From the NCBI RefSeq assembly GCF_024298765.1, contig NZ_CP101210.1: a stretch of DNA of 64,000 nt; one strand, written 5' to 3'. Both the position numbers and the translations under genes were made by a program. This stretch comes from Escherichia coli. GTDB taxonomy: Bacteria; Pseudomonadota; Gammaproteobacteria; Enterobacterales; Enterobacteriaceae. Positions 3,678-11,858 of this stretch are shown here, piece by piece. Under the pieces are notes generated by a model that was given only the letters and a program-made list of their open reading frames with translations, made no database searches and was not told the origin of the DNA. Within the stretch, counting starts at the first letter, position 1, and each line of letters opens with the position of its first letter.

Positions 3678-6584
<2,907 letters not shown>

Positions 6585-6767
6585 CACAACCCGAAGATGT
6601 TTCACTTCAGAGTTGCGAAAATTTGAGAGACTCACGAACAACTTTCGTTGTTCAGTGTTTCAATTTTCAGCTTGATCCAGATTTTTAAAGAGCAAATATC
6701 TCAAACATCACCCGAAGATGAGTTTTGAGATATTAAGGCAGGTGACTTTCACTCACAAACCAGCAAG

Positions 6768-6843
6768 TGGCGTCCCCTAGGGGATTCGAACCCCTGTTAC
6801 CGCCGTGAAAGGGCGGTGTCCTGGGCCTCTAGACGAAGGGGAC
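6768..6843 (-). tRNA. gltT: tRNA-Glu (anticodon UUC) in the 16S-23S spacer
   Basis: Reverse complement is GTCCCCTTCGTCTAGAGGCCCAGGACACCGCCCTTTCACGGCGGTAACAGGGGTTCGAATCCCCTAGGGGACGCCA, 76 nt with encoded CCA. Confidence 0.95.
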
Positions 6844-6928
6844 GTATCAGTCTGCTTCGCAAGACGCCTTGCTTTTCACTTTCTATCAGACAATCTGTGT
6901 GAGCACTGCAAAGAACGCTTCTTTAAGG

Positions 6929-8470
<1,542 letters not shown>

Positions 8471-8830
8471 AAAAGTTTGATGCTCAAAGAATTAAACTTC
8501 GTAATGAATTACGTGTTCACTCTTGAGACTTGGTATTCATTTTTCGTCTTGCGACGTTAAGAATCCGTATCTTCGAGTGCCCACACAGATTGTCTGATAA
8601 ATTGTTAAAGAGCAGTGCCGCTTCGCTTTTTCTCAGCGGCGCGGGGTGTGCATGATACACTTTCCCGCTACAGAGTCAAGCATTTATTTTTGCTTTCTCT
8701 GCCGGAATTCTCAGGAGAACCCCGCTGACCCGGCGGCGTGTTTGCCGTTGTTCCGTGTCAGTGGTGGCGCATTATAGGGAGTTATTCCGGCCTGACAAGA
8801 GGAAATTTAAAATAATTTTCTGACCGCGCA
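8471..8830 (-). promoter_or_regulatory. rrnB leader (boxA antiterminator) with tandem P2 and P1 promoters and UP element
   Basis: Minus strand: P1 has UP element AAAATTATTTTAAATTTCCTC, -35 TTGTCA (8793-8798) and -10 TATAAT (8771-8776). P2 has -35 TTGACT (8674-8679) and -10 TATCAT. boxA TGCTCTTTAACAA lies at 8603-8615. Confidence 0.8.
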
Positions 8831-8843
8831 ACATTCAACCAAA

Positions 8844-9701
8844 TCAGTCTAAAACTGCCAGTTTTTCGAGCGTTTCGAAGCCGTAACGCTGTAAAACGGG
8901 CAATAATTGTTCAGCTTCTGGCGTCATTGCCATACAAAAGGCAATATTCGCATCGGCAGATTTTGCATCCGGGGCTTCATGTTCTAACAGCCAGGCCGTT
9001 CGGCGAGCAATCGCTGCGCCAGAATCCACCAGCCGGGTTCCCTCTGGCAGCACCTGTAACAGTTCTTCTTGTAGTAGAGGGAAATGGGTACACCCCAGTA
9101 CAACGGTATCTGGCGGCTCTTTCATTCTTAACCACGGACGCAAGATACGTTTTAGCGCATCCAGAGAAACATCTTCGCCATGCAGCTTCGCTTCAGCCAA
9201 CTCGACCATCTCTGCCGAGCCCAGCATTTCTATCTGGCATTCATTAGCGAAACGCGCGATCAGCTCATGAGTATAAGAACGTTTAACAGTTCCGCGGGTT
9301 GCCAGTAATCCGACAATGCCATTTGCCGTCAGACGTGCAGCAGGTTTAATCGCCGGCACGACACCAACAACCGGGAAGTCGAACTTTTCGCGTAATGCAG
9401 GAAGTGAAACGGTACTGGCGGTGTTGCAAGCGACCACAGCCAGCGCAAGGGGATAACGTTCTTGCACTGCGGTGACAATTGCCACCACTCGCTCAACAAT
9501 AAACTCTTCGCTTTTTTCGCCATACGGGAAAGCGACGTTATCGAAAGCATAAATGTAATGGAGATCCGGTAAGAGATGCCGGATCTCGTCATAGACCGAC
9601 AACCCACCGACGCCGGAGTCAAACACCAGCACGGTGGGACGTGGTTCAGAAGGTGTAGCTGCCAGACAAGGTGTATTCCCGTCCTGCAGTTTGGTAGCCA
9701 T
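8844..9701 (-). CDS. murI: Glutamate racemase (285 aa)
   Basis: ORF contains [37 protein letters not shown]...; start set at MATKLQ. Start overlaps the btuB 3' end by 56 bp. Confidence 0.92.
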
Positions 9702-11490
9702 AGACTGTCTCATAATCTTTGTCGAACAGGTTGGCTATTTTACCACGAACTGTCAGATGAGAGGTGACCGGATACGCAACCGCAAGATCCCACAAGCTCA
9801 CACCGCCCATTTTGACTGACTTATAGGGCCAGGATGAGTAATCCGAATCGTATCGCGATCCCAGATATTGATAAGTTACACCCCAGTCAAAATCGAACAC
9901 TTGCCAGTCGAGCTGATACTTTACTTGCTGTTTAGGACGACGTTCTAACGGTTTGTCAGTTAAGGCATTTCTGGCATCCGTATAATCGTAGCTAACGGTA
10001 TGCACCAGCGGTCCAGTCTCGAAGTTTGCTGTAGATTCAATACCCTTAATATGCACCTTTGCGTCGTTATAATATCTTTCGCAGTTTTGGGTACAATTAA
10101 TCATATCACTGATATCATTACGGTATCCTGAAATTCGCCAGTTCACTCCTGCTGTTAAGCCTTCAAACGCCCCTTCCCACTGTTTGCTTTTTTCTGGATC
10201 GAGATTCGGATTACCTTTGTAACCATATAACTGACCGAGATTTGGCGCTTTAAATGCAGTTCCATAGGAAGCGATAAAGCGATAGCCTTCAATAAACTCC
10301 CATCCCACACTGGATTGCCATGTTGTGTGGCGATCAAATTGCGAGTTGTCGTCATTACGCACCGCGCCTTCTAACGTAAAATCGCCAACTTTTTGTAATC
10401 CAGTCAGATAAATCCCCGTGTTACGCTGATCGTAACCTTTTGGCAAATATCCAGTTCCAGGAGTAGTGGATTGTTTTTGCCAGTCGATACCAGCTCCAAC
10501 ATCACCGTGACCGACTGTGACGCTATTTGTCCACTGGAGATTGTATTGTTTCATCTCATCCAGGTTAGCTGATGCGTCATAGCGTCCATAATGTGGATCG
10601 TAGTTGTAATCTTTACTATGGCTATAACTGGAAACAAGTTGAGATTGCAGTGTTTCGCCAGCGTAGCGAAGACCCGCATCCCAGCTTTGACTATAAAGTT
10701 TTCGTGTATCAATCAGCGGAGAACCAGGAGAGTACCAGGCGTCATATTTAGTTCGGTTATCATAGCCGTAGCCACGAACAAATCCGCTCCACGTATCAGA
10801 GAAGTTATGTTCAAGTTTGCCGTAGAGTGTTTTACTTAAAAAACCGTCTCTGTCTGACTGTGGCTGCATCCCAGTGTTGCCATAGGCAACGACATCAAAT
10901 CCCCTGGTATAGGCATAATCACCAAGAAGTGTTACTTGAGTATTTTCACCAATTTGTTGCTGAGTGGAAATATCGTAATTTTGATAACTATTACTTCCCC
11001 ATCCGGCTGAAATTTCAGTGCCAGTATTCTCACGGGAGGTAATAATATTTATCACACCGCCAATGGCATCTGAGCCATAAATCGCTGAACGTGGCCCACG
11101 GATATATTCGATACGCTGCACCAAAGCGATCGGAAACTGGCTCAGGTCAGCCGATCCGCTAACACCTGCTAAATTCAGACGTACACCATCAATTAAAACC
11201 AGTGCATGGTTAGAGTTCGTGCCTCGAATAAAAATAGTTGAGAGCTGACCTTCTCCTCCATTTTGTGCAATTGCCACACCAGGCAAACGGCGGAGAACAT
11301 CATTTACAGAGGAAACTTGCCATCGTTCAATATCCTCACGTGTCACGACAGTGACAGGAGCAAGCACGGCACTTAATGGTTCCTGAAAACGGTTAGCAGT
11401 AACAACGAGAGTATCCGGGCTGGTATCCTGTGCCCAAGCAGAAAAAGCTGTGACAGAACACGCCGTCAGCAGCGAAGCTTTTTTAATCAT
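9646..11490 (-). CDS. btuB: TonB-dependent vitamin B12 / colicin E / phage BF23 outer-membrane receptor (614 aa); a diverged allele
   Basis: ORF 9646..11535 contains [35 protein letters not shown]... (signal peptide, TonB box DTLVVTA) and the C-terminal beta-barrel ending SGSYTF. Start set at MIKKAS (ATG 11488-11490). Confidence 0.93.
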
Positions 11491-11731
11491 TGTAAAGCAT
11501 CCACAATAGAAGAAGGATGCCGCAGGTTTCATCAATATTACGCGATGATGAGAACCAGATGCGACGTTAGCCGGCAGGTCTTCGGGCTTGGAGGGGTATC
11601 TAAGATACTAAGAGATGATGACTTCCCACCGGATGGCAGTGTCCGCATAACGCAATCATCGCACCTTTCCTTACCGCTGCGCGTCAGCTCCAGATTCGCA
11701 CTGGATTCCCTATTAACTCACAGGACCGGCA
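11491..11731 (-). ncRNA. Adenosylcobalamin riboswitch (btuB 5' leader)
   Basis: Minus-strand sequence GCCGGTCCTGTGAGTTAATAGGGAATCCAGTGCGAATCTGGAGCTGACGCGCAGCGGTAAGGAAAGGTGCGATGATTGCGTTATGCGGACACTGCCATCCGGTGGGAAGTCATC... matches the well-studied btuB leader. The 5' end is approximate. Confidence 0.85.
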
Positions 11732-11858
11732 AGTGGATGCTACAGGTTGTAACAAGTTACTGTCCAGACGTAGCTCACAAATAGGAATTCATCAAGATCT
11801 GGACATCTGATGAGCAATCCCTACAATCGCCGCGTACTTTAATTTTTCAGGATACATC

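Follow-up and report, generated by a model that had tools for sequence, protein, structure and literature searches.

A classical example of a translationally coupled gene overlap is trpB-trpA, in which the two genes meet at an ATGA or TAATG junction. In classical coupled pairs of this kind, the stop codon of the upstream gene lies at the downstream start codon or within a few nucleotides of it. The overlap of btuB and murI in Escherichia coli resembles these pairs in that the two genes are same-strand neighbours in one transcription unit, and the Shine-Dalgarno sequence of the downstream gene is weak. It differs from them in that the btuB stop codon lies 56 nt past the murI start codon, no hairpin masks the start, and a separate promoter-like element and a separate 5' end are found before murI.

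In E. coli K-12 MG1655 (b3966/b3967), btuB is annotated at 4163639..4165483 and murI at 4165428..4166285, so that 56 nt are shared. The overlap has been termed "well-characterized" in the literature, and it is the reason given for the absence of a btuB knockout from the Keio collection, since murI is essential (bioRxiv 10.1101/2025.12.01.691526). In the same study, cells survived the loss of the first ~1000 bp of btuB together with its ATG, and Tn5 insertions were obtained even within the overlap, with one orientation favoured 10-fold. In btuB promoter-up mutants, the "btuB-murI" transcript was raised about 300-fold.

A 5' end of murI at -28 from the start codon, represented by two 454 reads, was listed by Mendoza-Vargas 2009 (Table S1; PMC2760140) together with a sigma-70 -10 box printed as "tcgtGGTAAAATagcc" (PATSER 4.9; TG extension present). 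The -10 box given there for the -28 end was GGTAAAAT with a TG extension; 5' triphosphates were not proven by the authors, and the -28 end could therefore be a processing site (PMC2760140). A second btuB gene, carried by the LAA pathogenicity island of LEE-negative STEC and located next to iha, has also been described in the literature.

Overlap of btuB and murI

The locus was analysed in a stretch of 64,000 nucleotides of E. coli DNA (contig NZ_CP101210.1, assembly GCF_024298765.1), which is called the window below. The main features were as follows:

6929 to 8470: 16S rRNA
8844 to 9701, minus strand: murI CDS, glutamate racemase, 285 aa (ORF, match to PDB 2JFN, RefSeq start)
9646 to 9648, minus strand: btuB stop codon TGA, read from the sequence
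9646 to 9701, minus strand: btuB/murI overlap, 56 nt, 100% identical to K-12
9646 to 11490, minus strand: btuB CDS, chimeric allele, TonB-dependent cobalamin receptor (ORF, translation, 83% aa identity to K-12 BtuB)
9699 to 9701, minus strand: murI start codon ATG (in 17 of 17 other loci; best anti-SD match of four candidate starts)
11556 to 11745, minus strand: cobalamin riboswitch in the btuB leader (Rfam RF00174, 87.8 bits, E = 3.3e-21)

The btuB gene (minus strand, 11490..9646) started with the ATG at 11490, stopped with TGA at 9648..9646 and encoded 614 aa; a TTG at 11535, which gave the longest ORF and nothing more, was rejected as the start. The protein was 100% identical to an E. coli protein cluster named BtuB and carried the Pfam domains PF07715 and PF00593. 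MurI matched chain A of PDB 2JFN (285 aa, beginning with MATK) with E = 3e-186 and 2 substitutions in 284 aligned residues, and a third difference from K-12 MurI was its C-terminal residue, outside the 2JFN alignment. The riboswitch at 11556..11745 represents the upstream control of the btuB-murI transcript. Downstream of murI, a consensus promoter scan picked up two rRNA promoter-like sites.

The frame of murI was +1 relative to btuB, and the murI ATG took its A and T from the second and third positions of a BtuB Tyr codon (TAT) and its G from the Gly codon that follows. The overlap encoded BtuB residues 597-614 and the stop codon as well as MurI residues 1-19; the C-terminal 18 residues of BtuB, of which the last is Phe, thus fall inside it.

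Comparison with K-12 MG1655 showed the same strand, length of 56 nt, start, stop and frame, and the identity continued for 55 nt upstream of the murI ATG; the difference lay in the btuB body only, where a cassette designated type W had 74% nt identity to K-12, and the overlap itself was unchanged. The earlier note had described a 56-bp btuB/murI overlap as in K-12, and this description was correct in coordinates, length and sequence. RefSeq annotated the 56-nt overlap in every native E. coli btuB-murI locus that was fetched, whatever the btuB allele type. As in the canonical enterobacterial arrangement, both genes were on the same strand with the murI ATG 56 nt before the btuB stop, and the order of the neighbourhood was riboswitch-BtuB, MurI and then an rRNA operon. 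The feature is the canonical same-strand btuB/murI overlap of the Enterobacteriaceae and is already known. In itself it is nothing new, being annotated in K-12 and RefSeq and cited as a bar to clean btuB deletion.

Chimeric Structure of btuB

Alignment with K-12 divided the btuB allele into a diverged core and conserved flanks, and two further features were placed:

9814 to 11404, minus strand: diverged btuB core, type W cassette (74.2% identity to K-12, 89.7% to the LAA island btuB)
9796 to 9814, minus strand: interval assigned to the 3' recombination junction of the btuB cassette (last K-12 mismatch at 9814, departure of the LAA copy at 9796)

In an ungapped alignment, the core (11404..9814) had 411 mismatches to K-12 in 1591 nt (74.2% identity), and the flanks of the core were 99-100% identical to K-12. 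At the protein level, 511 of 614 aa (83%) were identical to K-12 BtuB and there were no indels. The divergence of btuB, which the earlier note had asserted, was therefore confirmed. On the 5' side, the riboswitch leader and the first ~100 coding nt were close to K-12, with 7 isolated mismatches. On the 3' side, the last allele-specific mismatch, at 9814, preceded the murI ATG by 113 nt; the following 308 nt (9813..9506), which include the overlap, had a single mismatch to K-12 at 9757, and this difference was common to the other E. coli alleles compared.

A relative of the core, of the same allele family, was the LAA island btuB (locus L026, strain RM10466). It shared 89.7% nt and 90% aa identity with the window core, had its own cobalamin riboswitch and showed the same ATG-in-TAT-GGC arrangement. 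It differed in being a second copy in an island and in having a donor-type 3' end; in addition, an IS256-like transposase fragment truncated its murI after 70 nt, and the -10 extension had lost its TG. The pattern of differences between the window and K-12 was shared by the LAA copy up to -113. Beyond this point, the LAA copy differed from both the window and K-12 at 22 sites, 13 in -112..-1 and 9 in the overlap, the first such site being -95 (9796). Many sites in its first ~75 coding nt also differed from both.

Because the LAA copy diverges 3' of -113, the 3' junction in the window represents a true crossover and not mere local conservation. The sequence comparison shows that btuB of the window is a chimera, in which a foreign 1.6-kb type W core is inserted between native flanks with a 3' crossover at 9814-9796. 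The type W core and the LAA island btuB may come from one lineage that is otherwise unsampled. For the donor of the core, the best aa identity among GTDB species representatives was 84%, and a search of 5.8 billion proteins returned only E. coli clusters above 84%.

The overlap has stayed K-12-like because the foreign btuB DNA ends ~100 bases upstream of the murI start. Judged from the alignment, the overlap and the murI expression signals are ordinary E. coli DNA that was never within the replaced segment. The statement that the overlap was retained despite btuB divergence is thus literally true, but the selective retention that it implied does not follow: the divergence ends at 9814, which makes the retention trivial.

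Distribution of btuB Alleles in E. coli

Among 5426 complete E. coli genomes, the type W core was present at >=99% identity in 79. A W-related form (~89.8%) was found in 69 of the 5426 genomes, and the one example that was fetched was the LAA island copy, not a native locus. Another allele, type S (627 aa, 57% aa identity to K-12 BtuB), belonged to an unrelated family and occupied the native locus in 284 of the 5426 genomes. In the other aligning genomes, the type S core query matched only over its final ~70 nt or less, which is consistent with the K-12 type.

Dense mismatches to K-12 ended at -107 in type S and at -113 in type W, nearly the same position. A 120-nt stretch that includes the overlap (9642-9761) was present with full coverage and >=95% identity in 5425 of the 5426 genomes (>=99% in 4685, 95-99% in 740). 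Comparison of the overlap across btuB allele types, which the earlier note had proposed as a check, thus gave the same overlap in all types. No description of cassette alleles at the native locus, or of their shared 3' boundary, was found in the searchable literature.

Constraint on the Overlap and the Upstream Block

Synonymous divergence was calculated from codon alignments of 16 taxa as the fraction of pairs with the same amino acid that used different codons. The gene means of the pairwise synonymous difference were 0.476 for btuB and 0.496 for murI. The values around the murI start were as follows:

Overlap in the btuB frame, codons 596-614: synonymous difference 0.085, rank 2 of 609 windows
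Overlap in the murI frame, codons 1-19: synonymous difference 0.038, rank 1 of 275 windows
btuB codons 577-595, the single-coding 57 nt before the murI ATG: synonymous difference 0.18, rank 20 of 609 windows
9646 to 9750, minus strand: near-invariant block of ~105 nt in the cross-genus alignment (promoter-like motif, leader, start, overlap)

The 12 lowest btuB windows listed all extended into the overlap, and the first btuB window (codons 1-19) had a value of 0.21. The low synonymous divergence in the overlap is what dual coding leads one to expect, and, together with the presence of the murI ATG in all 17 other loci, it shows that the arrangement is not accidental.

Codon invariance was also compared in columns that were amino-acid-invariant and degenerate, using the Fisher test. 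The codon-invariant columns numbered 8 of 224 in btuB codons 20-575, 7 of 13 in the 19 codons before the murI ATG (p = 1.2e-6) and 7 of 13 in the overlap (p = 1.2e-6). By this measure, the 57 nt before the ATG were as constrained as the overlap. The synonymous constraint upstream of the murI ATG could reflect a translation-initiation region and not a promoter.

Candidate murI Promoter within btuB

Two features were assigned to the constrained stretch before murI:

9737 to 9745, minus strand: extended -10 promoter-like motif TGGTAAAAT, in btuB codons Arg-Gly-Lys-Ile (sequence and conservation)
9729, minus strand: putative murI transcription start, placed to within a few nt at -28 from the ATG (5' end in K-12; sequence identical to K-12)

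The motif TGGTAAAAT has TGn directly before TAnnnT, as in extended -10 sigma-70 promoters. It further resembles these promoters in that a reported 5' end lies 8 nt downstream and no usable -35 element was seen upstream of it. It differs from them in that it lies wholly in the CDS of the upstream gene, every base being part of a BtuB codon, and in that the 5' end is not proven to be a primary start. All 24 native loci in the comparison had TGnTAnnnT; Tenebrionibacter and Pantoea showed variants of the hexamer. Only the LAA island copy, where murI is truncated, had lost the TG of the extended -10; this copy represents a single natural control.

The -28 position was predicted from the motif before it was matched to the table of Mendoza-Vargas. 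The reported end falls 8 nt after the hexamer, within the spacing of 6-8 nt expected for a primary start. The consensus promoter scan, which requires a -35 hexamer, found nothing before murI. In Goodall 2018, there was no mention of btuB or murI.

A rival reading does without a promoter in the block. In it, all murI mRNA would come from the btuB promoter, the -28 end would be a product of processing, and the upstream constraint would mark only the region where ribosomes load to initiate de novo on the long mRNA. The absence of a -35 element, the origin of the -28 end in two reads whose 5' ends were not shown to be triphosphorylated, and the strong Tn5 orientation bias, which suggests that murI needs transcription from upstream, agree with this reading. 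The pattern of conservation speaks against it: the invariant run GTT CGT GGT AAA AT coincides with TGGTAAAAT at 9745..9737, and its codons GTT CGT GGT AAA, which are 4-, 6-, 4- and 2-fold degenerate, match TGnTAAAAT and not a Shine-Dalgarno sequence. This run lies 36-49 nt upstream of the ATG, beyond the normal ribosome footprint. The spacing of 8 nt between the hexamer and the reported end is as expected for a promoter, and the one copy that lacks the TG has no murI to express. We consider this reading unlikely.

Translational Coupling of murI to btuB

The earlier note had called the overlap consistent with translational coupling of an essential gene to the btuB transcript. Under such coupling, murI would be translated mainly or only through ribosomes that translate btuB, and the overlap would be kept for this purpose. 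Several properties of the locus are compatible with this. The two genes are on the same strand and have been assigned to one operon; the btuB-murI transcript rises in btuB promoter-up mutants; the Shine-Dalgarno sequence of murI is weak (-2.7 kcal/mol), so that help from upstream ribosomes is conceivable; and the overlap is invariant across genera. Its invariance is, however, accounted for by dual coding.

The geometry of the locus does not fit coupling by termination and reinitiation. Where such coupling places the stop at the start codon or within a few nt of it, the murI start here precedes the btuB stop by 56 nt, and a terminating ribosome would need a long backward search. The btuB/murI overlap does not qualify as a termination-reinitiation pair. 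Coupling by unmasking, which needs a structure that occludes the ribosome binding site or the AUG, has as little to act on, since there is no stable structure at the murI start: compared with shuffled sequences, no stable RNA fold was found around the start in either a 200-nt (z = 0.55) or an 88-nt segment (z = -0.26).

Mutants speak against coupling indirectly, as the 5' deletion of btuB and the Tn5 and IS3 mutants keep murI function. The IS3 case is a natural insertion in a type W btuB, in strain GPEC1258, with murI intact. Promoters in the inserted cassettes that read outward may account for the survival of the btuB deletion and the tolerated insertions, and the 10-fold orientation bias of Tn5 points to such rescue. 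Further, a separate 5' end at -28 has been reported behind the conserved extended -10 motif. Finally, the riboswitch turns off btuB translation and murI is essential; strict coupling would be expected to make vitamin B12 toxic.

The coupling proposed in the earlier note was therefore not supported, given a stop codon 56 nt past the start, the lack of a masking structure, the viability of btuB-null mutants and the reported 5' end at -28; we regard it as quite improbable. Read-through from the btuB promoter is real, and it could be the main source of murI mRNA.

Start Codon of murI

The murI ORF (9713..8844, minus strand) had two in-frame ATGs, at 9713 and 9701. The ATG at 9701..9699 (MATK..., 285 aa) gives an overlap with btuB of exactly 56 nt (9646..9701), and the ATG at 9713..9711 (MRQSMATK..., 289 aa) would give 68 nt. 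The elements considered were as follows:

9708 to 9711, minus strand: weak Shine-Dalgarno-like GAGA, 6 nt before the murI ATG (anti-SD duplex -2.7 kcal/mol)
9711 to 9713, minus strand: upstream in-frame ATG (68-nt overlap, 289 aa), not the conserved start (anti-SD -0.9 kcal/mol)
9624 to 9632, minus strand: downstream in-frame GTGs at 9632..9630 and 9626..9624, rejected starts without anti-SD complementarity

The start was compared in 17 non-K-12 loci, from E. albertii, E. whittamii, two other Escherichia, Salmonella, Citrobacter, Enterobacter, Leclercia, Lelliottia, Pseudenterobacter, Superficieibacter, Tenebrionibacter, Pluralibacter, one further member of the Enterobacteriaceae, and Pantoea. 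All 17 had the ATG that yields the 56-nt overlap, and GAGAC was invariant in 25 of the 25 sequences compared. The anti-SD duplex energies were -2.7 kcal/mol for ATG 9701, -0.9 for ATG 9713, +0.4 for GTG 9632 and +0.6 for GTG 9626.

For two Gram-positive MurI structures found in the PDB search, the alignment began no earlier than residue 28 of the 289-aa ORF (residue 24 in the numbering of the 285-aa protein). The overlap was thereby shown to encode a 19-residue N-terminal extension of MurI that is absent from these two matched structures. In a mutagenesis paper, the N-terminal extension of MurI was reportedly tied to regulation by UDP-MurNAc-L-Ala.

If the overlap were an annotation artefact, murI would start at GTG 9632 or GTG 9626, past the btuB stop, and the extension beginning with MATK would not be made. 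Such a start would agree with the position near which the Gram-positive MurI proteins begin and with the viability of Tn5 insertions in the overlap, for which an alternative start and an N-terminally truncated functional MurI have been proposed (bioRxiv 10.1101/2025.12.01.691526). Against it, neither GTG has a Shine-Dalgarno match, and both are Val codons of the conserved MurI core. ATG 9701 is kept in all taxa even though it spans a synonymous TAT/TAC site of BtuB, and the neighbouring Tyr codon varies. The third positions of btuB in the overlap, which are second positions of murI, are constrained (0.085 vs 0.48), which would be unexpected if the extension were untranslated; in addition, both ORFs were called translated by most ribosome-profiling tools. 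A start at either GTG is thus very improbable. A downstream murI start with better conservation and a better ribosome binding site, which the earlier note had named as a refutation, was looked for and not found, the GTGs lacking an anti-SD match and ATG 9701 being present in all loci.

A start at ATG 9713 (68-nt overlap, 289 aa) is hardly credible, although this is the first ATG of the longest ORF in the window and in K-12. Within Escherichia, the codon reads ACG in E. albertii, in E. whittamii and in some E. coli; outside it, ACG stands in Salmonella and in every other genus but Pantoea. The poor conservation arises because the codon lies across a TAT/TAC site that is synonymous for a Tyr of BtuB. 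In addition, its anti-SD match is poorer (-0.9 kcal/mol), its leader would be just 16 nt if the transcript starts at -28, and RefSeq and PDB carry the 285-aa form.

Discussion

We consider it probable that the explanation as a whole is correct, namely that the window carries the canonical overlap with the murI start at ATG 9701, next to a chimeric btuB, and that murI expression is independent of btuB translation. In this explanation, murI would have two sources of mRNA: the btuB transcript under riboswitch control, and transcription from an extended -10 sigma-70 promoter of its own, TGGTAAAAT, embedded in btuB codons. Transcripts from its own promoter would have a leader of ~28 nt with the weak GAGA Shine-Dalgarno sequence and no masking structure, and ribosomes would start on murI independently of btuB translation. 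Such a dual supply would keep the essential MurI made when vitamin B12 shuts btuB down.

The putative promoter, the leader, the start codon and the dual-coding overlap would together make up the nearly invariant block of ~105 nt. This block probably also serves as a homology anchor for the swap of btuB cassettes, and the conserved riboswitch and signal-peptide region would provide the 5' homology for replacing the receptor-coding core. Selection by phages and colicins could plausibly act on the btuB core.

More tentatively, the near-invariant ~105 nt, which hold the BtuB C-terminus, the candidate murI promoter and leader, and the MurI extension, may fix the 3' edge of cassette exchange. It is conceivable, though we would not favour it outright, that the cores are exchanged in E. 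coli as phage and colicin receptor cassettes, and that the W and S cores never replace the murI signals. In this reading, at least two unrelated deep btuB families, W (79 genomes) and S (284 genomes), would be chimeras with foreign cores that stop a few nt apart. As far as the literature was searched, several side findings have not been described for the native locus, namely the two deep btuB families there, the 3' boundary that they share, the relation of type W to the LAA island gene, and the constraint at the promoter motif.

In btuB engineering or typing, as in receptor work on phage BF23/T5-like phages and colicin E, at least the last ~110 nt of btuB should be kept, as they hold the murI start and probably the murI promoter too. 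The natural replacement alleles of btuB stop at the same boundary, and the signals of an essential neighbour that are embedded in the receptor gene limit its swapping.

Type W btuB core

The btuB core of the window was highly diverged from the K-12 allele and is a foreign cassette (type W).

9814..11404 (-), btuB core, type W cassette, 74.2% DNA identity to K-12

At an identity of at least 99%, the type W core was carried by only 79 of the 5426 complete E. coli genomes, many of which came from poultry. Outside E. coli, no BtuB with more than 84% amino acid identity to the type W protein was found among the species representatives and protein clusters searched; the donor lineage of type W is therefore considered unsampled. 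A 633-nt fragment with 99.1% identity to the type W core was present in E. coli IH5 (NZ_CP168949.1, 5137357..5137989), off the native locus and adjoining the type VI secretion gene tssH.

Synonymous divergence was also low at btuB codons 1–19 (11434..11490, minus strand), at 0.21 vs. a mean of 0.48. These codons mark the homology flank on the 5' side of the type W cassette, and their low divergence is consistent with riboswitch-linked control extending into the coding region.

Type S btuB family

A third btuB family, type S, occupied the native locus in 284 of the complete genomes, two of which are listed with locus-internal coordinates.

L022 420..2303, type S btuB, E. coli SCU-171, native locus
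L023 290..2173, type S btuB, E. coli JMF1, native locus

The type S protein consisted of 627 aa and shared about 57% amino acid identity with K-12 BtuB, being further from it than Pantoea BtuB is. Divergence of type S from K-12 stopped at -107 from the murI ATG, nearly the same boundary as in type W, and early 5' variants of btuB were common to both types.

LAA island btuB copy

E. coli RM10466 carried a second btuB copy in the LAA pathogenicity island.

L026 851..3164, second btuB copy, E. coli RM10466, LAA island beside iha

This copy had its own cobalamin riboswitch, and its identity to the type W core of the window was 89.7%. It was followed by a murI stub comprising the first 70 nt of the gene, after which an IS256-like transposase fragment truncated murI. 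In all, 69 genomes had a core with about 89.8% identity, with the locus context examined in one of them, RM10466. The island btuB gene is already known from the literature; in the literature searched, no description of its kinship with a native-locus allele was found.

The btuB/murI overlap and downstream region

The region's strongest anti-Shine-Dalgarno match, CAGGACGGG (-7.0 kcal/mol; 9681..9689, minus strand), lay within the btuB/murI overlap, 3' of the murI ATG. It was followed by no start codon in the frames inspected, and might be a site of ribosome pausing.

Two strong sigma-70 consensus matches in the interval that separates murI from the 16S rRNA gene are probably tandem promoters of the rRNA operon located 3' of murI (5000..8470, minus strand).

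8771..8798 (-), TTGTCA-16-TATAAT, 11/12
8652..8679 (-), TTGACT-16-TATCAT, 10/12
6929..8470 (-), 16S
6771..6843 (-), tRNA
6591..6690 (-), StyR-44 match in the spacer
6583 down to at least 5000 (-), 23S; 5000 is the edge of the stretch searched

In E. coli GPEC1258 (L002, 2546..5726), an IS3-family element had inserted close to the 5' end of a type W btuB and disrupted the gene, and murI and the 56-nt overlap were intact despite the insertion. GPEC1258 is a natural btuB-null strain.
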